Part shown: piece after piece, positions 1 through 63,049 of the stretch
Position numbering within the stretch: the stretch's first letter is position 1
Layout of the letters: each line of letters starts with the position of its first letter
Origin: Bacillota bacterium
GTDB lineage: Bacteria > Bacillota > SHA-98 > UBA4971
Assembly: GCA_014360195.1 (NCBI GenBank)
Contig: JACIXY010000001.1
Location: 186,989-250,988 of the forward strand
Length of the DNA: 64,000 nucleotides
Reading direction: 5' to 3'
The notes under the pieces: generated by a model
What the model was told of the DNA's origin: nothing
Databases searched by the model: none
Seen by the model: the letters and a program-made list of their open reading frames with translations, nothing else
Made by a program: the position numbers and the translations under genes

Positions 1-25
1 GCGCAGCCGTGCCGCGCCCGCCCCG

Positions 26-155
26 TTAAGTGAGGGTGCGTTACTCCTTGTCTCTGTTCCAGTAGTTGCCGGGTTGCCGGTGTTGTACTCTCTCTTTGAG
101 TCACTGGCAACCCCTCCCAGAAGTCGGAGGCGTTTCTGCACCCTCACTTGGCACC
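26..155 (+). repeat. MITE-like element, short form (~130 bp), both terminal inverted repeats present (AAGTGAGGGTGCG ... GCACCCTCACTT)
   Basis: Near-identical to copies at 42036-42160 and 62878-63006 (reverse orientation). Core CCAGTAGTTGCCGGGTTGCCGGTGTTGtACTCTCTCTTTGAGTCAcTGGCAACCCCTCCCAgAAGTCGG. Confidence 0.8.
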
Positions 156-7357: not shown

Positions 7358-7424
7358 CTCTCACCCCTCCCGTCACGACAATCTTAGCATACGGGCCAAG
7401 GGTTTGTCATCGGGTCTGCGCTCT

Positions 7425-7623
7425 TAAGCGAGGGTGCGTTAGTTCTCGCCCCTCTTCCAGTAGTTGCCGGGTTGCCGGTGTTGCACTCGGGGACGGCGCC
7501 CCAAGCGGGGCGCGCTTCGCCAAAATCCGGCCCGTCTGGCTAGGCAGCCGGATTTTGACACCGCTCGTGCAATCACCGGCAACCCCTCCCAAGAGTCGGG
7601 AGCATTTCTGCACCCTCATTTAG
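7425..7623 (+). repeat. MITE-like element, long form (~200 bp) with central hairpin module
   Basis: TIRs AAGCGAGGGTGCG ... GCACCCTCATTT. Core GTTGCCGGTGTTGCACTCGGGGACGGCGCCCCAAGCGGGGCGCGCTTCGCCAAAATCCGGCCCGTCTGGCTAGGCAGCCGGATTTTGACACC...CACCGGCAACCCCTCCCAAGAGTCGGGAGCATTTCTGCACCCTCA. About 90% identical to copies at 17908 and 44758. Confidence 0.85.
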
Positions 7624-7793
7624 GACGCCAGGTCGCCAGGTCGCCGCCTCGTCGCGTCGCATCGTGTCGCATTGCGTCGCGCCGCGCTGCCGGGCTCCTT
7701 CCGCTCCTTGCGCGTGGATGTGGGGTCTGTCCGCGGCAAAGCTGGCGCAAAGGTACCACTTTCCCCTGGCCACGATTGAGGGAGGTAAGAGCC

Positions 7794-9417: not shown

Positions 9418-10221
9418 ATGGCGCTCTACAGGACTGAGGGGATCGTCCTCAAGACCAGGAACTTAGGCGAGGCTGACAGGATCGTCACATTCTACTCGCC
9501 CACGAAGGGCAAGGTCCGGGCGGTTGCCCGGGGCGCCAGGAGGCCCCGGAGCAGGTTCGTCAGCAGCACTCAGATGTTCGCTCACGCCGACTTCCTGGTA
9601 TTCTCCGGCAAGTCCCTTGACAACATAAGCCAGGTCGAGGTGAAGACATCTTTTCCCCGCCTCCACGAAGACCTCGTGAAGCTGGCTTTCGCAAGCTACG
9701 CTGCGGAACTTCTCGACGCCATGGTCGAAGAGGGTGGGGAGAGCGGGGAGAGCGCGGGTAACGAGGCGATCTTCGGCCTTCTGGTTTCGTACCTTCGCGC
9801 CCTCTCTGACGCGCGCGACCCCGAGATGCTCACCCGGGCTTTTGAGATAAAGCTCTCGTCCATCCTGGGGTACAGGCCGGTTTTGGACTCATGCGCACGC
9901 TGCGGCGCAGCCCATTCTGGCGGCGAAGTCGGGTTCGACCCCGAGGCAGGTGGGCTCGTTTGTGGAGGATGTCTCGGCCGTGGGGGACCCGGCGCTGTGC
10001 GGCTCTCGCGGGGTGCGGTCGAAATCTTGAAAAGGCTGCTCCAGCTTGACTTCGACAGGGTCTCGCGGCTTGGAGCAGGCCCGGGCACGAGGGCCGAGAT
10101 AGAGAGGGCGATGAGGGCGCACCTCGACTTCAGGCTTGACCGGAAGCTGCAGTCACTCGAGTTTCTTGCGGCGGTGAAAGCCGCGCCAGGCGGCGGCCGC
10201 AAGGCTGTGACCCCTGAGTGA
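9418..10221 (+). CDS. recO: DNA repair protein RecO
   Basis: MALYRTEGIVLKTRNLGEADRIVTFYSPTKGKV... is the RecO N-terminal OB fold. The C-terminal zinc motif CxxC...CxxC (CARCGAA...CGGC) is present. Confidence 0.9.
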   Translation: MALYRTEGIVLKTRNLGEADRIVTFYSPTKGKVRAVARGARRPRSRFVSSTQMFAHADFLVFSGKSLDNISQVEVKTSFPRLHEDLVKLAFASYAAELLDAMVEEGGESGESAGNEAIFGLLVSYLRALSDARDPEMLTRAFEIKLSSILGYRPVLDSCARCGAAHSGGEVGFDPEAGGLVCGGCLGRGGPGAVRLSRGAVEILKRLLQLDFDRVSRLGAGPGTRAEIERAMRAHLDFRLDRKLQSLEFLAAVKAAPGGGRKAVTPE

Positions 10222-17663: not shown

Positions 17664-17907
17664 CAGGGAGTGTCTTGTGGGCAGGCCGTGGGCTGCTCGG
17701 GCCGGGCGCCGGGAGCTGACTGTGAGTACGCCCCCGAGCGCGCCCCCAAGCCCGAGCACGGCCTGTGCGACGCGGAGGCTACGCAGACGGGCGAACTCAA
17801 AAGATAACGCAGAACGACGGGAAGGTGCCCCCGCGAGCGCCTTGAGGCGCTCGCGGGGGCACCGGCAGTCCTGGGGTGAGACCCGGTGCGTTGCACCTGC
17901 CAGCGGC

Positions 17908-18101
17908 TAAGTGAGGGTGTTAGTTCTCGTTCCTTTTCCAGTAGTTGCTGGGTTGGCGGTGTTGCAGTCGGGGACGGCGCCCCAAAGCGGGGCGTGCTTC
18001 GCCAAAATCCGGTCCGTCGGGCGAGTGGCCGGGTTTTGACACCTTTCGTGCAAGCAACGGCAACCCTTTCCCAGAGTCGGGAGCATTTCTACGCCCTCAC
18101 T
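17908..18101 (+). repeat. MITE-like element, long form
   Basis: TIRs TAAGTGAGGGTGT ... ACGCCCTCACTCA. Core matches 7425-7623 with scattered substitutions. Confidence 0.85.
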
Positions 18102-18450
18102 CAGTGGTGCGGTTTGTTGCACGCGAGTGAATTTTCGGGCATATACTGCTTCAAGTATGATATACTATGAGATATGCGAACACGTGGTCCGGTCGACGGC
18201 GCGACAGAGATGCGAAATCTTGAGCATGAGGGAGGATTTTGGCAAGATCCGTCGAATCCTCTACGCCGGTCTTCGTCCAGTTCAAGGCCGTATCGGGAGA
18301 TCGTTGCCCCATGCATACCGAGTCCAGAGAAAGGTTGCTTTCTTTGGGCGGGGCGGCCTGGCAAAAGAGGAAAAATGCCCGTAGTGGCGAAAGAGGAACT
18401 ACAACGAACGCGTCTCGTTGACTTGTGGTGTGGCGAGGAGAACTGGCACA

Positions 18451-21735: not shown

Positions 21736-21810
21736 TCCCTGGTAGCTCAATGGCAGAGCGGCCGGCTGTTAACCGGTAGGTTGCAGGTTCGAGTCCTGCC
21801 CAGGGAGCCA
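21736..21810 (+). tRNA. tRNA-Asn (anticodon GTT)
   Basis: Cloverleaf: acceptor TCCCTGG/CCAGGGA, anticodon loop CTGTTAA, T-loop GGTTCGAGTCC, encoded CCA. Confidence 0.85.
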
Positions 21811-21816
21811 GGAATT

Positions 21817-21892
21817 CGGGCCTATAGCTCAGCGGTAGAGCAACCGGCTCATAACCGGTCGGTCCCTGGTTCGATCCCAGGTGGGCCCACCA
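21817..21892 (+). tRNA. tRNA-Met (anticodon CAT, elongator or Ile2-type, G1:C72)
   Basis: GGGCCTATAGCTCAGCGGTAGAGC...anticodon loop CTCATAA...GGTTCGATCCC...CCA. Confidence 0.85.
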
Positions 21893-23441: not shown

Positions 23442-23945
23442 ATGTTAGGAGGGAAGGTGGTGGACGACTGCTTGCAGGCTGATGCACGTGGTGAGCTGAT
23501 CATATACAGCGACGGTGCGTCCCGGGGGAATCCAGGCCCTGCTGGGGTCGGCGCGGTCATTCTCAACGAGAGCGAGCAGGTGGTTGCCGAGATAAGCCAG
23601 GGGATCGGCAGTACGACTAACAACGAGGCCGAGTATCTCGCGCTTGCGAGGGCGCTCGAAACTGCGCAAAAGCTTGGGGCTCGCAGAGTGCGGGTATATG
23701 TGGACAGCGAGCTTGTGGCGAGGCAGCTTTCCGGGGAGTACGCTGTGAAGTCGGATCGACTGCGCCCCCTCGTGGCGAGGGTGCAGAAACTGAGGAGAGG
23801 ATTCGACTCGTGCCCTGTAAGACACGTGCGGCGGGGTATGAACGCGAGGGCCGACGAGCTTGCCAATATGGGCATCGACGCTGCCCTCGAGCCCTGGAAG
23901 AGAGCCGGAGAGCCATGTGGGCAGGGAGGCGAGCGAGAGAATTGA
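23442..23945 (+). CDS. rnhA: ribonuclease HI
   Basis: LIIYSDGASRGNPGPAGVGAVIL...TNNEAEYLALARALE...VYVDSELVARQL has the RNase H catalytic D/E/D signature. The start may alternatively be the GTG at about 23460. Confidence 0.85.
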   Translation: MLGGKVVDDCLQADARGELIIYSDGASRGNPGPAGVGAVILNESEQVVAEISQGIGSTTNNEAEYLALARALETAQKLGARRVRVYVDSELVARQLSGEYAVKSDRLRPLVARVQKLRRGFDSCPVRHVRRGMNARADELANMGIDAALEPWKRAGEPCGQGGEREN

Positions 23946-24040: not shown

Positions 24041-24430
<390 letters not shown>

Positions 24431-27281: not shown

Positions 27282-27504
27282 ATCCTCCTTGTCTTGAGGT
27301 TTCGAGAGGGGAGCCTCAAGTGAGAACTGCCGGCGGGAAAGCCTATCCGCCCGGACGATGCTTTGGCAAGGACGCTTTCCTCCTTTCGGATGGCTTTTGA
27401 GGTGTGTGGGATTATGTTGTGTCGGCAGCAGCGCTGCCACCTAGTTGTTTGGATATATCGGCACAAATTCCTTCTGTGCGGGGGGCTGTATGGCAGAATT
27501 TGTC

Positions 27505-27534
27505 TTGACAGGAAGGACGGGGGCCTCATATACT
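27505..27534 (+). promoter_or_regulatory. sigma-A promoter TTGACA-N18-TATACT for imuB-like/dnaE2
   Basis: Directly upstream of the LexA box. Confidence 0.55.
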
Positions 27535-27541
27535 ATAAATG

Positions 27542-27555
27542 CGAACAGACGTTCG
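27542..27555 (+). promoter_or_regulatory. LexA (Cheo/SOS) box CGAACAGACGTTCG
   Basis: Perfect match to the Gram-positive consensus CGAACRNRYGTTCG. Positioned at the predicted transcription start of the imuB-like gene. Confidence 0.8.
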
Positions 27556-27575
27556 ACCACACTGCCTCTATCGTC

Positions 27576-29138
27576 ATGAAGGTCATGAAGGTGAGACCCA
27601 TGTCAATGGTGGTGGCGCATACCTGGGTGCCCGGTTTTTATGCGAAAGCCGAGGCTCTATTGAGCCGACATCCGGAGGGGGCGCCCGTGGTGGTGATCGC
27701 AAGGGGTAAGCAGGTGATGGATGCGTCGCCGGGTGCGAGGAAGAGGGGCATAGAGCCGGGGATGTCACTGTCCGCGGCGCGACTCATGTGCCCAGAGATC
27801 ATCGAGGTGGGCTACGTCCCTGAGCGGTACGACAGCCTTGCCGACAGCCTATGGGAGGCATGCGCGCAGTATAGCCCGGCAGTGGAGCCCCTGGCCCAAC
27901 ACGAAGCTTTCATCGACCTTTCAGGATGCGCCGATGTGCCGGGCGTGCTCAAGAGAGTATCTCAGGGTATAGAGGGCATCGTTGGAAGCCGTCCCCTGTT
28001 CGGGGTGGCGCGCTGCAAACTGGTGGCGCGGGTGGCTTCAGGAGTGCTCGAGGAGACAAGGGAGGTTTTGCAGGGCAAAGCACCTGGAGCCTCGTGCCGC
28101 CGCCGGGCGGGGTCCCATCCTGAAGGAGAAAGGCAGGGGAGGCATCTGACGGTCAGCCTGGCGCGGGAGGCCGGGAACGCCCTGATCGTTACCGGGAAGG
28201 AAAAGGAGTTTCTCGCCCCCTTGCCCGTGGGTGTACTCTGGACCATCGATAGAGATGTGATCGAGCGCCTCCTGCGCCTCGGCGTGCAACGGGTGGGCGA
28301 CGTGCAGGCGATGGGGAGATCGGCTCTCGCCGATGCGTTGGGAGAGGCAGGGCACGTTGTTTACGAGTTCAGCCTCGGCACGGATCGTTCGAGGGTGATG
28401 CCTGTCTACCCGAAAGAGGCTGTAACGTTTCGAAAGGCTTTCGACGACGAGGTTTCCGATGAGCCTATCCTGGCTCGCATAGTGGAAGGCGGCGCCGCGT
28501 TCATCGAACAGAGGCTGAGGGCCTGTGCTGTGACGGCCCGCCGGTGGGGTATCGTGCTCGAGTTCGCCAGCAACAGTGGTGCGAGCCAGGTGGCGCGCGA
28601 GCGACGCCTTTCGAAACCGCCGGAGTTCTACGGCGGCGTCCCGGCGATATACAGAAGCCTCCTGAGAGAGGTACTGTCGGCGCCGGGCGGGGCAACACCA
28701 TCACAATCTGAGTCGCCCGGGGCACCTGAATCGCCTGGGTCGTTTGGGTCGGCGTGGGGTCCGGGGCGGCAGGTGACGCGGCGCGAGCCGGCGACATGCG
28801 GGCTGTCCCGTCCTGTGAGAGCGATATCACTTGTAGCAGCCGATCTCGTGCCCACGGTAGCGGCATCGCAGGTGGATATGTTCGACCCGCATATAGCCGT
28901 CGACCCGACCCGAGCCGTCGATGCGGTCGTGGGTCGGGTAAGGGAGAAGTTCGGCGTGAAGAGCCTTTTTCCGGCGAGCCTGCTTGAATGCGACAGAAGA
29001 GATAGACTCCTGCTGGCCTGGGAGGCTTGTTCGTATGAGGAGAGTAAACAGGTCGCTTCAGGTTGTGATGCGAGGAGACCGGCGCCCGGAGAGGTTCTAC
29101 TGGAAACGAAAATGGCTTCGGGTGCTTTCCATTGTTGA
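27576..29138 (+). CDS. imuB: ImuB-like Y-family DNA polymerase homolog (catalytically inactive type)
   Basis: DinB/UmuC-fold similarity (VVIARGKQVMDASPGARKRGIEPGMSLSAARLMCPE...). The DMDCFF acidic catalytic residues are replaced by VVAHTWVPGFYA. The true start may be the ATG at 27600 or 27606. The region upstream of 27576 contains the LexA box and cannot be coding. Confidence 0.7.
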   Translation: MKVMKVRPMSMVVAHTWVPGFYAKAEALLSRHPEGAPVVVIARGKQVMDASPGARKRGIEPGMSLSAARLMCPEIIEVGYVPERYDSLADSLWEACAQYSPAVEPLAQHEAFIDLSGCADVPGVLKRVSQGIEGIVGSRPLFGVARCKLVARVASGVLEETREVLQGKAPGASCRRRAGSHPEGERQGRHLTVSLAREAGNALIVTGKEKEFLAPLPVGVLWTIDRDVIERLLRLGVQRVGDVQAMGRSALADALGEAGHVVYEFSLGTDRSRVMPVYPKEAVTFRKAFDDEVSDEPILARIVEGGAAFIEQRLRACAVTARRWGIVLEFASNSGASQVARERRLSKPPEFYGGVPAIYRSLLREVLSAPGGATPSQSESPGAPESPGSFGSAWGPGRQVTRREPATCGLSRPVRAISLVAADLVPTVAASQVDMFDPHIAVDPTRAVDAVVGRVREKFGVKSLFPASLLECDRRDRLLLAWEACSYEESKQVASGCDARRPAPGEVLLETKMASGAFHC

Positions 29139-29277
29139 CGAATGGCGCGAGGTAGGCGACTGGTGGCAGGGGGAAGGGGAGAGGCGCGTTTTTGCCGTGC
29201 TTGCAGACAACGGCGGAGTATACGAACTCTGTTGCGATGAGCACGACGCCTGGCAGCTTACGAAGATCTTCGACTAA
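29068..29277 (+). CDS. W-rich small ORF in +1 frame overlapping the imuB-like 3' end (possible ImuB C-terminal domain split by frameshift, or independent small protein)
   Basis: RRPERFYWKRKWLRVLSIVDEWREVGDWWQGEGERRVFAVLADNGGVYELCCDEHDAWQLTKIFD has a globular-looking composition. The imuB frame over the same nucleotides is low-information. Ends 27 nt before dnaE2. Confidence 0.35.
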   Translation: MRGDRRPERFYWKRKWLRVLSIVDEWREVGDWWQGEGERRVFAVLADNGGVYELCCDEHDAWQLTKIFD

Positions 29278-29303: not shown

Positions 29304-32300
29304 ATGGGGAAGTTCGCGCATCTCCACGTGCACTCGCATTTCTCATTCCTTGATGGGGCGTCGAGCGTCGAGGCCATTGTGAGGGGCGCGGCGGAGCTTG
29401 GCATGGAGGCCATCGCCGTCACGGACCACGACAACCTCTGCGCGGCGGCGAGGCTCGTCCGGGCCGCCCGGCAGCACGGGATAAAGCCCATCCACGGCGT
29501 CGAGGTCACGCTCGAGGGCGGGAGCCACCTGGTACTTCTGGCGGAAGGGCCCGAGGGCTATGCCAACATCTGCACGATCCTCACCGAGGCTTATATGTCG
29601 AGAGACTGGGAGAGGGCCATCGCGGGCGACGGCGTAGCGCTGTTTTCTAGGAGCCCTAGCGATACGATACTAAGTGAGAGTGCAACACCGGCAACCCGAC
29701 ACCCGCTGGAAAACCGGGAGGAATTAACTAACCTTCGCTTAGGGCCGCCCGGGCGAGCGCTCCCGGCGTCAGGGAGCGAGGTCGTGGCGGAGTTTGCCAG
29801 GCGCCGCCTGGCACCGAGGGTGTCCCTGTCCTCGCTTGAGGAGCACCACAAGGGGGTCATAGCGCTTTCCGGGTGCATCGTGCGGGGCGCCGTTGCAGCA
29901 CTCGTCCGCGCGGGCAGGTACAGGCAGGCGCTGGAGCTTGCCAGGCGGCTTGTGGACATCTTCGGGCGGGCTAGCTTCTACATCGAACTCCAGAGCCTCG
30001 CCATCCCAGGTGGCGACCACCTCATCTCCCGCCTCGTTGAGCTGGCGGAGGAAGTCGGGGTGAGGGTCGTGGCTACCAACGACGTCCACTACTGCAAAAA
30101 ATCGGACTTTGCCATACATGACGTCCTCACCTGTATCCGCACGCTGACGCGGCTCGACGATGTGCATCCTGAGCGGAGGCTCAACGCCGAGAACTACTTG
30201 AAGCCTGTCGAAGAGATGACGTCCCTTTTCCGCCGCTATCCTGAGGCGATAGCAACTGCAGGCGAGATCGCCGACCGGTGCTCTCCCGGGCTTTTGCTCG
30301 ACCAGAGGCTCTTTCCAACCTTTGTCCCTCCAGAGGGGACGGGGACGTCCGCCGAGTACCTCCGACATCTTGTATACGAAGGCGCCTTATCGCGCTATGG
30401 GACTATCACCCCGGCGATAAGGTCGAGGCTCGACCACGAGCTTGACGTCATATGCACCCTCGGGTATGAGGACTACTTTCTCATGGTATGGGACGTTGTG
30501 AACTTCGCCCGGCAAAAGGGGATCCGGTTCGCGGGGAGGGGCTCCGCGGCAGACTCCGCCGTGGCGTATTGCCTTTTCATAACCAGCGTGGACCCGATCG
30601 CCCGCGGCCTTCTCTTCGAGAGATTCCTCAGCCTCGAGCGGGCGCAGAAGCCCGACATCGACATCGACTTCGATGCCCGCAGGCGAGATGATGTGCGGGA
30701 TTACCTGCAGCGCAAGTACGGTCCCGAGCGTGTGGCGACGGTATGCACTTTCAACACGTTTCGAGCGAGGTCTGCCGTGCGCGACGTGGGCAAGGCCATG
30801 GGGCTGCCCCCAGGGGACATAGACCGGCTTGCGAAGCGCCTTCCGCACATGTGCGCAGACGAGATCAGGGTGGCTTTCGAGAGGTACCCCGAGCTTCGCG
30901 AGAGCGGCATCTCCGTGGAGAAATACTTTCGTCTGTTCGATGTATGCCAGGCCCTGGCGGGCGTGCCGCGCCATATCGGCACCCACCTGGGCGGGGTGGT
31001 GGCAAGCCGGGTGCCTCTCGTGAGGGTGACCCCCTTGCAGATGGCGGCGCGGGGCGTAGTCATCACCCAGTTCGACAAGGACGACGTGGAGGAGGTCGGC
31101 CTCATCAAGCTCGATCTGCTGTCGCTGCGCATGCTCGCGGCGGTGGAAGATTCCGTGAGGCTGAGCGGCGTCGATTACCAGCGCATTCCCCTCGACGATG
31201 AGGCCACATACGAGATGCTGAACGCCGGGGAAACGATAGGCGCCTTCCAGCTCGAAAGCCCGGCGCAGCGGGCGCTCCAGGGGCGCCTCGGGGCGAGCAC
31301 CATTGAGGACATCGTGGCGAGCGTGGCGCTCATCCGGCCGGGTCCCGTCCAGGGGAACATGGTGGAGCCGTTCGTCGCAAGGAGGCGGGGGCTTGAGGAC
31401 GTGACTTACGTCCATCCCAGCCTTGAAAGGATCCTTAAAAAAACGTATGGCGTGGTGCTCTACCAGGAGCAGGTGATCGAGATCGCAACGGCGATAGCTG
31501 GCTTCACTCCGGGGGAGTCCGACCGCCTGAGAAAGGTGATGACTCACTACCGCTCCAGGGCCGAGATGGACGAGATAGGGAAGGAATTCGTGAGGAAGGC
31601 GATGGAACATGGAGCCCCCCGGGAGGTCGCCGAGACGGTGCTTTCATACATAGTTGCATACGCAGGGTATGGCTTCTGCGAGGCCCACGCGGCGGCCTTT
31701 GCGGACACCGCCTACAAGACGTCGTACCTTTTGCGCCATTTCCCTGCGGAGTTTTACGCGGCCATCCTGAACAACCAGCCGATGGGGTTCTATCCGCCAA
31801 ACACCATATGCGTGGAGGCCAGACGGCGCGGGGTCCGGATCCTGCCGGTTGACATAAATAGAAGCGCCGAGAGGTTTACTGTCGAGAACGGCGCAATACG
31901 CGTGGGGCTTCTCAGGGTGCGGGGCATAAGCGAGGAGACGGCCGCAAGGATAGTCGCATCCAGAGGGCCGCTGGGGTATGCCTCCATCGAGGACTTCTTC
32001 GCGCGGGTGCCCGTGGATCGCGACCTCCTTGAAAACCTGGTGTTATGCGGCGCATTTGATTCCCTGTGTCCCAACCGCAGGGCTGCGCTTTGGAAGATCG
32101 CAAGGCAGCTGCAAAGAGCGGAGCGGTTGGGAGGTCGGTCGCGTAAGTCGGCGGTGCGGAAGAGGAGTGGAAGCGGCGATGGCCGCGGTGCCATCCCTGG
32201 TTTGGCCCCGCAGCCGTGGCGCAGCCCCAACGATGGCGCTGGCGATGACGTTGGCACCTCTTCCGAAGCCGGCATGCAGGTGCGGAGCACGCAGGCCGGG

Positions 32301-32738
32301 GACGGCGGCTCTCTTCGATCGTTAGGGGATATCCCCGACTTTTCCGAGGTCGATAAGTTCAAGTACGAGTTCTACATACTCGGCCTCCATCCCACGAAGC
32401 ACCCGATGGAGTTCTATCGTAGCTGCCTGGCGAGGGGAGGGGTGCTCACGGCTGCCGCCGCAAAAGAGATGGAGTCCGGCACGAGCGTGCGGGTGGCGGG
32501 AGTGGTGGTGAGGCCGCACCGCCCTCCGACCCGAAGCGGAAGGATCGTGATCTTCTTCTCACTCGAGGACGAGACCGGCCTCATCGACGTGACGGTGTTC
32601 GAGGACGTGTACAGGCAGTGCGGGGGTGTGATGTTCACGAGCCCAATCCTTGTTGTTGAGGGACGCGTGGAGCGGCGGGGGAACATCGTGAGCCTAATTT
32701 CGCACGGCATTCGAAAGGATCTTCCTTGCCAGCATTGA
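29304..32738 (+). CDS. dnaE2: error-prone DNA polymerase III alpha subunit DnaE2 (ImuC)
   Basis: N-terminal PHP domain with the DnaE2-type signature HLHVHSHFSFLDGAS, polymerase core, OB fold. Sits downstream of the imuB-like gene behind a LexA box. 1144 aa including a repeat-derived in-frame insertion. Confidence 0.8.
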   Translation: MGKFAHLHVHSHFSFLDGASSVEAIVRGAAELGMEAIAVTDHDNLCAAARLVRAARQHGIKPIHGVEVTLEGGSHLVLLAEGPEGYANICTILTEAYMSRDWERAIAGDGVALFSRSPSDTILSESATPATRHPLENREELTNLRLGPPGRALPASGSEVVAEFARRRLAPRVSLSSLEEHHKGVIALSGCIVRGAVAALVRAGRYRQALELARRLVDIFGRASFYIELQSLAIPGGDHLISRLVELAEEVGVRVVATNDVHYCKKSDFAIHDVLTCIRTLTRLDDVHPERRLNAENYLKPVEEMTSLFRRYPEAIATAGEIADRCSPGLLLDQRLFPTFVPPEGTGTSAEYLRHLVYEGALSRYGTITPAIRSRLDHELDVICTLGYEDYFLMVWDVVNFARQKGIRFAGRGSAADSAVAYCLFITSVDPIARGLLFERFLSLERAQKPDIDIDFDARRRDDVRDYLQRKYGPERVATVCTFNTFRARSAVRDVGKAMGLPPGDIDRLAKRLPHMCADEIRVAFERYPELRESGISVEKYFRLFDVCQALAGVPRHIGTHLGGVVASRVPLVRVTPLQMAARGVVITQFDKDDVEEVGLIKLDLLSLRMLAAVEDSVRLSGVDYQRIPLDDEATYEMLNAGETIGAFQLESPAQRALQGRLGASTIEDIVASVALIRPGPVQGNMVEPFVARRRGLEDVTYVHPSLERILKKTYGVVLYQEQVIEIATAIAGFTPGESDRLRKVMTHYRSRAEMDEIGKEFVRKAMEHGAPREVAETVLSYIVAYAGYGFCEAHAAAFADTAYKTSYLLRHFPAEFYAAILNNQPMGFYPPNTICVEARRRGVRILPVDINRSAERFTVENGAIRVGLLRVRGISEETAARIVASRGPLGYASIEDFFARVPVDRDLLENLVLCGAFDSLCPNRRAALWKIARQLQRAERLGGRSRKSAVRKRSGSGDGRGAIPGLAPQPWRSPNDGAGDDVGTSSEAGMQVRSTQAGDGGSLRSLGDIPDFSEVDKFKYEFYILGLHPTKHPMEFYRSCLARGGVLTAAAAKEMESGTSVRVAGVVVRPHRPPTRSGRIVIFFSLEDETGLIDVTVFEDVYRQCGGVMFTSPILVVEGRVERRGNIVSLISHGIRKDLPCQH
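29671..29743 (-). repeat. truncated MITE-like element (TIR + one arm, ~73 bp) inserted in-frame within dnaE2 coding sequence
   Basis: TAAGTGAGAGTGCAACACCGGCAACCCGACACCCGCTGGAAAACCGGGAGGAATTAACTAACCTTCGCTTAGG aligns to the right half of the short-form copies (62878-63006). The ORF stays open and encodes ...ILSESATPATRHPLENREELTNLRLGPP... Confidence 0.7.
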
Positions 32739-32956: not shown

Positions 32957-33081
32957 GGGTTGCCGGTGTTGCACTCCGGGGACGGCGCGCTCGCGGCGCG
33001 CCTCGTTCGAATTTAGCGCACGGGCCAGCAAAATTCTCGACGCCCCGCCCTAGCAAGCACCGGCAACCCTAACACCCTCAA
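32957..33081 (+). repeat. MITE-like element, divergent long-form core lacking left TIR
   Basis: GGTTGCCGGTGTTGCACTCCGGGGACGGCGCGCTCGCGGCGCGCCTCG...CAGCAAAATTCTCGACGCC...CACCGGCAACCCTAACACCCTCAAG. Confidence 0.65.
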
Positions 33082-33285
33082 GAAAAGTGGCGAAAACTTA
33101 TGGCGCCATACTTAAGTGACTGCCAACCTGCGTTCCCAGACCGGCTGTGTGATGGGAGTATGCGCCACGGTAGGGCATTAACCTGGAAGAAGGCAGCGGT
33201 CTCGTCAACCGGATGCAGGGAGACAAGCCCCATCGCCGGGGACTGTGACTGCCCTGCTGCCAGTTACAGGTGAGGAGTGATACGA

Positions 33286-41953: not shown

Positions 41954-42035
41954 GCGATGAAAGGCGCCGGGCCGGCGGGAGAGCGCGGTGTCTCCGGCCC
42001 AAATGGCGAGCCCGGGCCTCCACCGTGACGCGGGC

Positions 42036-42160
42036 TAAATGGGGGTGCAGAAATACTCCCGACTTTTGGGAAGGGTTGCCGGTGACTCAAAGAGAGAGTG
42101 CAACACCGGCAACCCGGCAACTACTGAGTGTGACAGGGACTTACGCAGCCTCACGTAGCT
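42036..42160 (-). repeat. MITE-like element, short form, 12 bp downstream of the beta-lactamase-like gene stop
   Basis: CTAAATGGGGGTGCAGAAATACTCCCGACTTTTGGGAAGGGTTGCCGGTGACTCAAAGAGAGAGTGCAACACCGGCAACCCGGCAACTACTG...CGCAGCCTCACGTAG. Confidence 0.8.
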
Positions 42161-42171
42161 TTCGCGCGCAC

Positions 42172-44749: not shown

Positions 44750-44757
44750 AAGCGACT

Positions 44758-44955
44758 GAGCGAAGGTGCGTTAGTCCTCGTCCCTCTGCCAGTAGTTGGC
44801 GGGTTGCCGGTGTTGCACTCGGGGACGGCGCCCCAAGCGGGGCGCGCTTCGCCAAAACCGGGCCCGTCGGGCAAGTGGCCGGATTTTGACACCCCTCGGG
44901 CAGGCACCGGCAACCCCTCCCAAAAGTCGGGAGCATTTCTGCACCCCACTTAGAG
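44758..44955 (+). repeat. MITE-like element, long form, ending 20 bp before the start of the RPH-like gene
   Basis: TIRs GAGCGAAGGTGCG ... GCACCCCACTTAGAG. Core about 92% identical to 7425-7623. Confidence 0.85.
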
Positions 44956-44974
44956 CCATGGAGGGAACGTCCAG

Positions 44975-49269: not shown

Positions 49270-49440
49270 GGGAAGCTCCCCCCAACTATGAATTCGGGAT
49301 AATACCCTAGTATTTCAGTCGGGTTTGTTGTATTATAACACACGAGGGCGCGATGCGCTAGGGGTTGGACGCCCGGCCGCCGGACCAGGCTCTGCAACCA
49401 GCAGGGCGCGCAGAGCGCAGGCCGAGGTTACGAGGAGACG

Positions 49441-49468
49441 GACAGGAACTTACGCACCCTCACTTAGG
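49441..49468. repeat. solo terminal-inverted-repeat fragment of the MITE-like family in the cysK 5' region
   Basis: GACAGGAACTTACGCACCCTCACTTAGG matches the arm-TIR junction of the other copies. Confidence 0.5.
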
Positions 49469-49583
49469 GATGCAGAGGAGCGCCCGCAAGGCAGCGCGCA
49501 AAGCACGAATGGCGGGCTCGGCTGGTGGATGCGAGCCCCAGCAGCAGGAGCCTTCGAAGTGTTCGAGGAGAGTGATTGTCGTG

Positions 49584-50498: not shown

Positions 50499-50648
50499 GC
50501 GGCGCTTCGTTACAAGACGCAGCCGCTGGGCGCTTGTCGGTCGAGGTCCCGCCGTCTCGCCGAGGCATCTCTACCGACCACGGCTGCTATGTGTCCTCTG
50601 TTCTGCGCATAATAGCCACAGAGCAAAAGAACGTGGCAACGCAAAGCT

Positions 50649-50797
50649 AGGTGAGGGTTCAGCAATGCTTCCCACTTGTGGGAAGGGTTGCCGGTGGTTG
50701 CACGAGGGATGTCAAAACCCGGCCACTCGCCTGACGGGCCGGATTTCGGCGAAGTGACCCCGCTGGAGGCGCCATCCCCGAGTGCAAAACCGCCGCT
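50649..50797 (-). repeat. MITE-like element, long form, degenerate at one end
   Basis: TAGGTGAGGGTTCAGCAATGCTTCCCACTTGTGGGAAGGGTTGCCGGTGGTTGCACGAGGGATGTCAAAACCCGGCC...GGCCGGATTTCGGCGAAG... is the reverse complement of the 7425-7623 core. Confidence 0.75.
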
Positions 50798-50872
50798 AAC
50801 CCACCAGATGTGGGCACACTGCGAGGAACCAATGAGTCCTTACTCAGCTGCGCAGGACGGAGGCTGATACAG

Positions 50873-61805: not shown

Positions 61806-62618
61806 ATGTTTGTGGCGGGAATAGACGTGGGGTCAACAACCACGAAGGCTGTCCTCCTGAGTGACGGGAAGCTTGCGGGGACGCACGCGATGCCCACGGG
61901 GGTGGACCTTGCCGCCGCGGCTGACGAGTGCCTTCGTGTGATTTGCCGCGCGGCTGGTGTGGGCCCTGACAGGCTTGCGGCCCTCGTGGCGACCGGGTAT
62001 GGCAGGGACAGGGTGACCGGTGCCGCGAGGACGGTGACCGAGATCACGTGCCACGCCCGCGGCGCGCGGGCCCTCGTCCCGTCGGCGCGGGTGGTGGTAG
62101 ACGTTGGAGGCCAGGATTCGAAAGTCATCCGGCTGGACGATGACGGCATGGTCGCGGACTTCGTGATGAACGACAAGTGCGCGGCGGGCACCGGCAGGTT
62201 TCTCGAGGTGATGGCCGCGAGGCTGAACGTTCCGCTGGAGGAGTTCGGCATGAGGTGGCGAAGGGCGAAAGAGGCTGCGCGGATCTCCAGCACGTGCACG
62301 GTGTTTGCTGAGTCGGAGGTCATAAGCCTGCTCTCGCGTGGCGTGAGCCCCGAGCCCATAATCAGGGGCCTGTGCGATGCGGTGGCGGATAGACTCGCAG
62401 GGATGGTGCATCGAGTGGGCCTTGGCGGAGGGCTTGTGATGACGGGCGGGGTGAGCCGGAACGAGGGCGTCAGGAGGTCCCTCGAGGAGAAGCTGTTCGC
62501 GCCGGTGACCGTTCCGGAGGGATCCCAGTTTGCCGGGGCGTACGGGGCCGCCCTCATCGCTTTCGAGCTAGGTGAGGGTGCAGAGATGCTTCCGACTTTT
62601 GGGAGAGGTTGCCGGTGA
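61806..62618 (+). CDS. CoA-substrate-specific enzyme activase (HgdC/BadF/BcrAD-type [4Fe-4S] ATPase)
   Basis: IDVGSTTTKAVLL...DVGGQDSKVIRLDDDGMVADFVMNDKCAAGTGRFLEVMA (ASKHA fold with Cys ligands). The last ~16 codons (LGEGAEMLPTFGRGCR*) are encoded by a MITE-like repeat copy. Confidence 0.8.
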   Translation: MFVAGIDVGSTTTKAVLLSDGKLAGTHAMPTGVDLAAAADECLRVICRAAGVGPDRLAALVATGYGRDRVTGAARTVTEITCHARGARALVPSARVVVDVGGQDSKVIRLDDDGMVADFVMNDKCAAGTGRFLEVMAARLNVPLEEFGMRWRRAKEAARISSTCTVFAESEVISLLSRGVSPEPIIRGLCDAVADRLAGMVHRVGLGGGLVMTGGVSRNEGVRRSLEEKLFAPVTVPEGSQFAGAYGAALIAFELGEGAEMLPTFGRGCR

Positions 62619-62650
62619 CTCAAAGAGAGAGTGTGACACTGGAGGTGAGG
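62569..62650 (-). repeat. MITE-like element, short form, 3'-truncated/degenerate, overlapping the activase gene 3' end and supplying its stop codon
   Basis: CTAGGTGAGGGTGCAGAGATGCTTCCGACTTTTGGGAGAGGTTGCCGGTGACTCAAAGAGAGAGTGTGACACTGG. Confidence 0.75.
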
Positions 62651-62877
62651 TCGCAGCGGCTGGAACTCTCGCCCGCATGCCACCGTTGTACATGAGTGGT
62701 TTTCTTCCGACCGCCCGTCGCGGACGTAGACACACGCCGTGCCATCGCCTGTGACGGGCTTTTCGCCGGGTTATCCTGGATCGCGGCTGGTGCAGAGCGT
62801 CCCGAGCCCGCTCCCGATGCCGAGTGCCGCGACCATGAATCGGCGGCGGGCGAAGAGTACCCAAGTGGTCGGCTTGG

Positions 62878-63006
62878 GCTAAGTGACGGTGCAGAAATGT
62901 CCCCGATTTCTGAAAGGGGTTGCCGGTGACTCAAAGGGAGAGAGCAACATCGGCAACCCGGCAACCAGTGGAAAATGGACGAGAACTAACGCACCCTCAC
63001 TTAGCA
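62878..63006 (-). repeat. MITE-like element, short form, intact (both TIRs)
   Basis: CTAAGTGACGGTGCAGAAATGTCCCCGATTTCTGAAAGGGGTTGCCGGTGACTCAAAGGGAGAGAGCAACATCGGCAACCCGGCAACCAGTGG...AACTAACGCACCCTCACTTAGC. Confidence 0.85.
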
Positions 63007-63049
63007 CCACAGACATACAACTACAGTCGGAAAGGGGGAACGCGTTGCC

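Follow-up and report, generated by a model that had tools for sequence, protein, structure and literature searches.

Probable tolerance and in-frame erosion of a TA-flanked miniature inverted-repeat element in a DnaE2-like polymerase gene of uncultured Bacillota

In-frame survival of small repeats within conserved bacterial genes is already established (PMC10969869; PMC2229807; PMC3733652). The Rickettsia gmk product containing a Rickettsia palindromic element (RPE) is active (PMC10969869; PMC2229807), and repetitive extragenic palindromes (REPs) have been reported inside dnaE2 genes and inside the dnaE of R. conorii (PMC3733652). We describe here a related case from an uncultured, GC-rich lineage of Bacillota, in a 64-kb stretch of contig JACIXY010000001.1 (assembly GCA_014360195.1, positions 186,989 to 250,988 of the forward strand), referred to below as the window, whose coordinates are used throughout. 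A gene encoding a DnaE2-like (ImuC-like) C-family DNA polymerase (29304..32738, + strand; 1144 codons, frame open throughout) carries within its coding sequence a remnant (29671..29741, + strand) of a MITE (miniature inverted-repeat transposable element), homologous to other copies of the same family. We consider it very probable that this insert is a tolerated, eroding and neutral passenger in a working dnaE2 gene.

The dnaE2 insert works like the published cases, and what sets it apart is the element family, a MITE with terminal inverted repeats (TIRs) and a TA duplication, together with the host lineage. As with the RPEs (Ogata et al. 2000, reviewed in PMC10969869 and PMC2229807), a small, palindromic, multi-copy and non-autonomous repeat lies in frame in a conserved gene, lengthens the product by tens of residues where the fold can accommodate them, and occupies a host gene that is still under selection; some RPEs also end in TA (PMC2229807). 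However, RPEs invade many genes, with at least 19 open reading frames (ORFs) affected in R. conorii, while only one of the approximately 18 copies examined here, the dnaE2 copy, is intragenic, and the family does not share the RPE habit of sitting inside many genes. The sequence families are also unrelated, the host here is a free-living member of the Bacillota, and the element has stop codons in four of its six frames. The GTAG/CGTC-tagged REPs (Di Nocera et al. 2013, PMC3733652) offer the parallel of a small repeat in an error-prone dnaE2 gene whose ORF stays open, but these are palindromes of 20-40 bp linked to RAYT tyrosine transposases, in contrast to the 125-200 bp, TIRs and TA duplication seen here. 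The RUP element of Streptococcus pneumoniae, mobilised by IS630 (Oggioni and Claverys 1999, reviewed in PMC2229807), resembles our family in its TA insertion, its TIRs, its size of about 100-200 bp and its non-coding, mostly intergenic character. It shows no sequence similarity to our family, which differs further in having two size classes separated by a two-hairpin module of about 72 bp, and in that its IS630-like transposase is a putative one. Stop-free MITE frames that join a host protein are known from ERIC, Correia and Yersinia MITEs (Delihas 2007; PMC2229807), although these are mostly terminal fusions or lie in poorly conserved ORFs, whereas the present insert is internal to a large conserved enzyme and is represented by a series of progressively deleted alleles.

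Including both TA dinucleotides, the dnaE2 remnant measures 71 bp, and the net insertion of 69 bp corresponds to 23 codons (residues S124-L146 of the product). The ORF reads ...SDTIL SESATPATRHPLENREELTNLRL GPPG... across the insert with its frame open, and one predicted junction peptide is DTILSESATPATR. The remnant has the layout TA, AGTGAGAGTGC|AACACCGGCAACCCGACACCCGCTGGAAAACCGGGAGGAATTAACTAACCTTCGCT, TA, with the left TA (29671..29672, + strand) lying in the target cTAg and the duplicated TA found at the right end (29740..29741, + strand). The left TIR, AGTGAGAGTGC (29673..29683, + strand; family consensus AGTGAGGGTGC), is intact. The right TIR has decayed to TAACCTTCGCT (29729..29739, + strand; family consensus GCACCCTCACT) and, by our own reading of the sequence, is complementary to the left terminus at 6 of 11 positions. 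A single remaining copy of an 8-bp direct repeat, GAGTGCAA (29678..29685, + strand), was recognized as a deletion junction by alignment with the full-length elements of two related loci (L088, L089). The remnant keeps both termini and the right arm, and on folding only an 8-bp terminal stem remains (z = -0.7). The initial annotation of this stretch had proposed a 73-bp MITE-derived fragment, consisting of a TIR plus one arm and adding about 24 residues in frame to DnaE2. Its central claim was borne out by the family homology, the open 1144-codon ORF and the filled and empty sites described below; the one arm present is the right arm and the insertion is in frame as proposed, while the sizes are corrected to 71 bp and 23 residues, and both termini, not one, are kept.

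Homology to the wider family is clear within the window itself. The core motif GCAACACCGGCAACCCGRCA, already pointed out in the initial annotation, occurs nine times (up to 3 mismatches) as against none in 100 shuffles, and blastn with nhmmer recovered 12 copies or fragments in 64 kb, the dnaE2 copy included, or about one copy per 5 kb. Full copies end in AGTGAGGGTGC...GCACCCTCACT, which are TIRs and pair as the outermost stem in each full copy, and the folding of full copies beats that of shuffled sequence (z = -3.8 to -6.6). From our own reading of the alignment, TA is present at both ends in four of the seven full window copies, often in the context cTAg; in the remaining three, one end shows TA and the opposite end CA or TG. 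With at most 197 bp and stop codons in four of six frames, the element has no transposase coding capacity. Small size, dispersed copies, inverted termini, TA duplication and presence/absence polymorphism, along with this lack of transposase capacity, identify the family as a MITE. The other 11 window copies are all intergenic, as are all copies seen in related loci, and in relatives the copies occupy different positions that are not orthologous. A translation of the shared motif as ATPATRQLL in other copies, pointed out in the initial annotation, holds arithmetically, but the copies concerned lie outside genes. We rejected the converse possibility, that the family derives from a segment of dnaE2, given its own termini, its TA flanks, its many intergenic copies and the orthologs that lack the element.

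The same site was then compared among relatives, with a protein search returning eight close clusters. The dnaE2 site was filled in the window and in L004, L088, L089, L092 and L001, and empty in L002/L003. A clean empty site (gatacggtaC-CA-Ggatctccc) is found in P0007 (L002), whose protein is 79% identical; it reads DTVPGSPDRAL where the reconstructed pre-insertion window sequence reads DTILGPPGRAL, at the same length. Three sequences from the 90%-identity cluster that contains the closest match, P0001, carry a complete type B (long-class) element at the identical site: P0132 (L088), P0127 (L089) and the partial P0130. With both TA counted, this full-length allele holds 197 bp; its net length of 195 bp makes 65 codons, which keep the frame and contain no stop. 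The remnant is identical to the ends of the 197-bp element in L088 and L089, and the window allele corresponds to the full copy with 42 codons (126 bp) lost between a pair of 8-bp GAGTGCAA repeats, a form also carried within this cluster by P0001, P0121-P0126 and L092. In P0127 the full-length element has two extra indels, of -1 and -2; the stretch that they enclose is frame-shifted, and the frame is restored after it. More distantly, P0002 (L001; 82% identical) carries 116 bp of the element (38 codons net) with site and orientation unchanged; here a different, central 81 bp is missing. The net insert lengths are 195, 192, 114 and 69 bp, each a multiple of three.

The insertion, as remnant or as full-length element, was observed in at least 12 independently assembled sequences, including metagenome-assembled genomes (MAGs) from NCBI and sequences from ENA, JGI and Logan. 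Because the same insertion recurs in these independent assemblies, an assembly artefact, raised as a concern with the initial annotation, is excluded. A search of metagenome contigs with the flank pattern returned one relevant contig, L092, with the remnant allele, and no empty-site allele of the close clade. In the protein search of genome contigs, the genome of P0003 was the sole close relative among the matches listed and added no further alleles; the nearest named relatives among the matches listed were Limnochordales and Fermentithermobacillaceae-type Bacillota MAGs.

Several observations made alongside this comparison concern the same loop or the same gene. P0122 (182 aa) and P0130 (152 aa) are partial PHP-domain proteins from other assemblies that end shortly past the insert or inside it, P0130 ending in the middle of the full-length element, and short-read contigs appear to break at the repeat within dnaE2. 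In L002, the spacer just 5' of the empty-site dnaE2 holds a divergent member of the same MITE subfamily (9589-9787, - strand), embedded in a longer insertion (about 400 bp) that the other genomes lack. We considered this copy as proof of the TA duplication and set it aside, as the region has other insertions and provides no clean filled and empty pair. At almost the same place in the loop, P0003 (L005 10001-13357) carries a distinct insert of some 60 residues. This insert shows weak, collinear similarity to the MITE: its local alignment score is 17, compared with 12.2 +/- 2.1 for shuffles, of which 21 out of 500 (about 4%) reach 17, and this insert may be a much older decayed MITE copy or an unrelated expansion.

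Within the protein, the insert had been placed between the PHP domain and the polymerase core, which our analysis does not support. The Pfam PHP match is split in two, its first stretch (residues 6-102) covering positions 1-102 of the 164 in the profile. In a comparison with solved structures of E. coli alpha, residues 3-98 pair with 5-106 and residues 176-341 with 119-282, such that the 77 residues between the aligned blocks replace a loop of about 12 residues in the E. coli alpha PHP domain (107-119). The insert is therefore inside a PHP-domain loop, equivalent to E. coli alpha residues 107-119, and not in a linker between PHP domain and core. An AlphaFold2 model built from 79 homologs (mean predicted local distance difference test score, pLDDT, 84; predicted template modelling score, pTM, 0.82) leaves residues 109-155 without secondary structure and with pLDDT below 50, surrounded by a confidently folded PHP domain (pLDDT 83-97). 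These residues, predicted to be disordered, make up a lineage-specific expanded PHP loop (codons 109-155; 29628..29768, + strand) that hosts the insert. The model and the E. coli alpha alignment place the insertion at a loop position compatible with the fold. This loop is already expanded in relatives without the element, and on the model the MITE landed in a pre-existing disordered loop.

Selection on the gene and on the insert was compared among insert-bearing alleles with the ratio of nonsynonymous to synonymous substitution rates (dN/dS, Nei-Gojobori method). The whole dnaE2 gene gave 0.16-0.20 against orthologs, the polymerase core 0.08-0.14, and the folded part of the PHP domain 0.11-0.39. 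For the element-containing loop the values were 0.85 between P0132 and P0127 and 0.99-1.21 against P0002. The element itself differs at 23 of 194 positions (11.9%) between P0132 and P0127, with 24 of 588 (about 4%) differing in the flanks. Conserved residues of the PHP domain and of the catalytic region are invariant in an alignment of 79 sequences. The regional dN/dS values, the divergence and the invariant residues indicate that the DnaE2-like enzyme is under purifying selection and that the insert evolves about neutrally, bound only to stay open and in frame. We found no evidence of selection for the insert.

We propose that a structured MITE of about 197 bp would have transposed into a cTAg site of the dnaE2-like gene, landing in what was already an expanded disordered surface loop of the PHP domain. 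Because its 195 bp net (65 codons) were stop-free in the host frame, the polymerase would have been left intact and the allele would have survived. Since then the insert would have been a neutral passenger drifting at about the synonymous rate and shortened by slippage-type deletions, among which only those keeping the frame would persist. In the window allele, loss of 126 bp (42 codons) between the two GAGTGCAA repeats would have left the 23 extra residues. That the element is tolerated, as the initial annotation suggested, agrees with the intact ORF, the clean empty site of P0007 and the sister strains whose identical site holds the complete 197-bp element. Some points weigh against our proposal. 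The 69-bp remnant is near-identical among strains (0-3 differences in 71 bp), a comparison that has no power to test constraint, and this near-identity fits the low local divergence at this end of dnaE2. Translation through the insert and activity of the polymerase are things we infer from the selection pattern, read from sequence. A spaced-termini search of the window and eight related loci found no autonomous insertion sequence with matching ends, and the transposase family is deduced from the TA duplication and the target context. Lastly, the insert-bearing sequences are not monophyletic: P0002 and the insert-free P0006 are joined with 100% bootstrap when the proteins are placed on a neighbour-joining tree, so a single insertion needs later losses or recombination.

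The initial annotation had gone further and suggested that the element may be selected as an exonisable module. Under such a reading the MITE peptide or its mRNA hairpin would have been recruited and kept by selection, perhaps as a new PHP-domain loop that interacts with ImuB or the clamp or as a regulator of dnaE2 translation. The insert does persist over a synonymous divergence (dS) of about 0.38 between the window and P0002, both carriers; no empty allele was seen in the 90%-identity cluster; the right arm is kept in every allele; and Di Nocera et al. speculate that it may be no accident when repeats insert into repair and dnaE2 genes (PMC3733652). However, the loop evolves at a dN/dS of 0.85-1.21, as against 0.08-0.39 for the rest of the protein, and the peptide differs widely between lineages (PLENREELTNLRLG vs LLQNPDESAGFRFR). 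P0127 tolerates a frame-shifted internal stretch, and independent in-frame deletions have shortened the insert to the four net lengths given above. The window allele has lost two thirds of the element, with all its strong hairpins (z = -0.7 for what is left), and the region is predicted to be disordered. The intergenic position of the other 11 window copies and the stop codons in four of the six element frames also speak against an exonisable module, and we find selective recruitment improbable. We give similarly little credence to a MITE loop that is not neutral in the broader sense, forming a new lineage-specific interaction or regulatory surface on the PHP domain or an mRNA structure that tunes mutasome expression; if true, this MITE family would be a Bacillota counterpart of the RPEs, able to seed new protein segments. 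At the opposite extreme, the insertion might have inactivated dnaE2, with the gene a pseudogene or becoming one and the open frame a coincidence. The insertion does lie in a catalytic-type domain, and the NCBIfam scores of the product fall under both curated cut-offs. Against this, at least 12 independent alleles, of four insert lengths, have an open frame, dN/dS among insert-bearing alleles stays at 0.16-0.20 for the whole gene and 0.08-0.14 for the core, the conserved PHP and catalytic-region residues are kept, and the rest of the protein is modelled with high confidence. The pseudogene reading is thus largely refuted, and we regard it as very improbable indeed.

A further question concerns the history of the insert and not its nature. 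We favour one old insertion with later losses over independent hits on the window clade and on the P0002 lineage at the same cTAg, which would make the insert younger than it appears. Recurrent targeting is a possibility that we take seriously but think unlikely. In its favour are the grouping of P0002 with P0006 in the gene tree, the occurrence of CCGCTGGAAAAC and of a left arm one base shorter in the L002 intergenic copy as well, which would make these subfamily traits, and the preference for cTAg, a motif we assume to be rare in GC-rich DNA. On the other side, both copies have the dinucleotide, the orientation and the subfamily in common, P0006 has its loop deleted around the insertion site and may simply have lost the element, and the divergence along the gene is mosaic, as expected if recombination has scrambled the gene tree. 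The window differs by 3.2% of nucleotides from the full-length allele P0132 and by 5.8% from P0001, which has the same deletion. Along 29304-32738, in comparisons with L004, L088 and L089, divergence is unevenly distributed; against P0132, some 300-bp blocks have 3 differences and others 23. This mosaic suggests recombination within the population, and either the strains recombine or the deletion mediated by GAGTGCAA arose more than once. Shared states of the window clade and P0002 were also considered as proof of a single insertion; they are weakened in this role by the presence of the same states in the unrelated L002 intergenic copy.

Full copies of the family in the window fall into two size classes. 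Type A measures about 125 bp and type B 196-198 bp, type B being type A with its arms, GGTTGCCGGTG and CACCGGCAACC, separated by an internal module of two hairpins (about 72 bp). Type B is represented by a full-length intergenic copy of about 198 bp at 7418..7627 (- strand; nhmmer E = 9e-68, fold z = -6.6), by further intergenic copies found with nhmmer at 44750..44959 and 17902..18106 (both - strand), and by a more divergent intergenic one at 50643..50853 (+ strand; nhmmer). Intergenic type A copies were observed at 23..154 (- strand; about 125 bp, 5' of tyrS) and 42029..42161 (+ strand), both with nhmmer, and at 62873..63009 (+ strand), the last with a solo left half nearby at 62564-62629. 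A degenerate copy lies in the spacer just 3' of dnaE2 (32957..33118, - strand; blastn and nhmmer), and further fragments are at 1458-1536 and 49429-49469. A partial match to the MITE terminus was also seen at 23772, just 5' of the RNase P RNA gene. A scan of the whole window against Rfam at gathering thresholds matched the MITE family to no curated RNA family; the only matches were a class A RNase P RNA, at 299 bits, and two tRNA genes (24046-24428, 21736-21889). The family is dense and undescribed. Duplication of TA at a TA target is a hallmark of the IS630 family (PMC2229807, and established knowledge), and the TA duplication leads us to infer an IS630/Tc1-mariner-type transposase as the mobilising enzyme.

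The host gene product shows the Pfam order PHP, DNA_pol3_alpha, finger, HHH_6 and OB fold (1062-1132) in its 1144 residues, the C-family alpha architecture ending after the OB fold that characterizes DnaE2/ImuC. Its top NCBIfam model is NF004225 (error-prone DNA polymerase), with 881 bits below the cut-off of 939, nearly equaled by NF004226 (DnaE) with 879 bits against a cut-off of 1002. The superfamily model TIGR00594 is the sole curated model whose threshold is passed, and the expanded loops probably lower the NCBIfam score. A second predicted-disordered segment (pLDDT < 50) comprises residues 948-1005 (32143-32318), between the helix-hairpin-helix (HhH) region and the OB fold. It is Ala-, Gly- and Ser-rich, shows no similarity to the MITE, and varies in length among close strains, explaining most of the remaining length difference among remnant alleles (1144 to 1166 aa).

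Directly 5' of dnaE2 in the same cassette is an ORF for an ImuB-like Y-family polymerase homolog (27363..29138, + strand, maximal ORF; Pfam IMS), syntenic in six genomes, whose true start is probably near 27577. Between the two lies a small DUF6504-like ORF (28984..29277, + strand, maximal ORF), with DUF6504 called at the equivalent position in L001 (9728-9970), L004, L006 (9729-9971) and L089 (80-322). The order imuB-like, DUF6504-like, dnaE2 is kept in every close relative recovered. No imuA-like gene (ImuA or ImuA' partner) was found in this cassette, and the role of third component in this variant of the mutasome may fall to DUF6504. A LexA (Cheo) box-like sequence, CGAACAGACGTTCG (27543..27554, + strand), is a perfect match to CGAAC-N4-GTTCG and lies just 3' of a TTGACA...TATACT promoter-like pair and 5' of the imuB-like start. 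It is the one occurrence of GAAC-N4-GTTC in the 64-kb window, where 0.78 is expected by chance, and the operon may be under LexA control. Because of the operon context and the LexA-type box the dnaE2 (ImuC-like) label is reasonable, and both support a real, regulated gene.

Few bacterial MITEs are known to survive inside conserved genes, and the dnaE2 insert is a further, well-documented case. As a practical matter, the insert and the second hypervariable linker probably push the protein under the thresholds of curated DnaE2/DnaE hidden Markov models (HMMs), and the repeat would break contigs within the gene. At a single site, the alleles (empty, and with 195, 192, 114 and 69 bp net) trace the fate of such an insert, namely survival in a disordered loop, neutral drift and erosion filtered by frame. 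The understanding of DnaE2 or of MITEs is left unchanged, and the well-resolved allele series is the most useful aspect of the locus.

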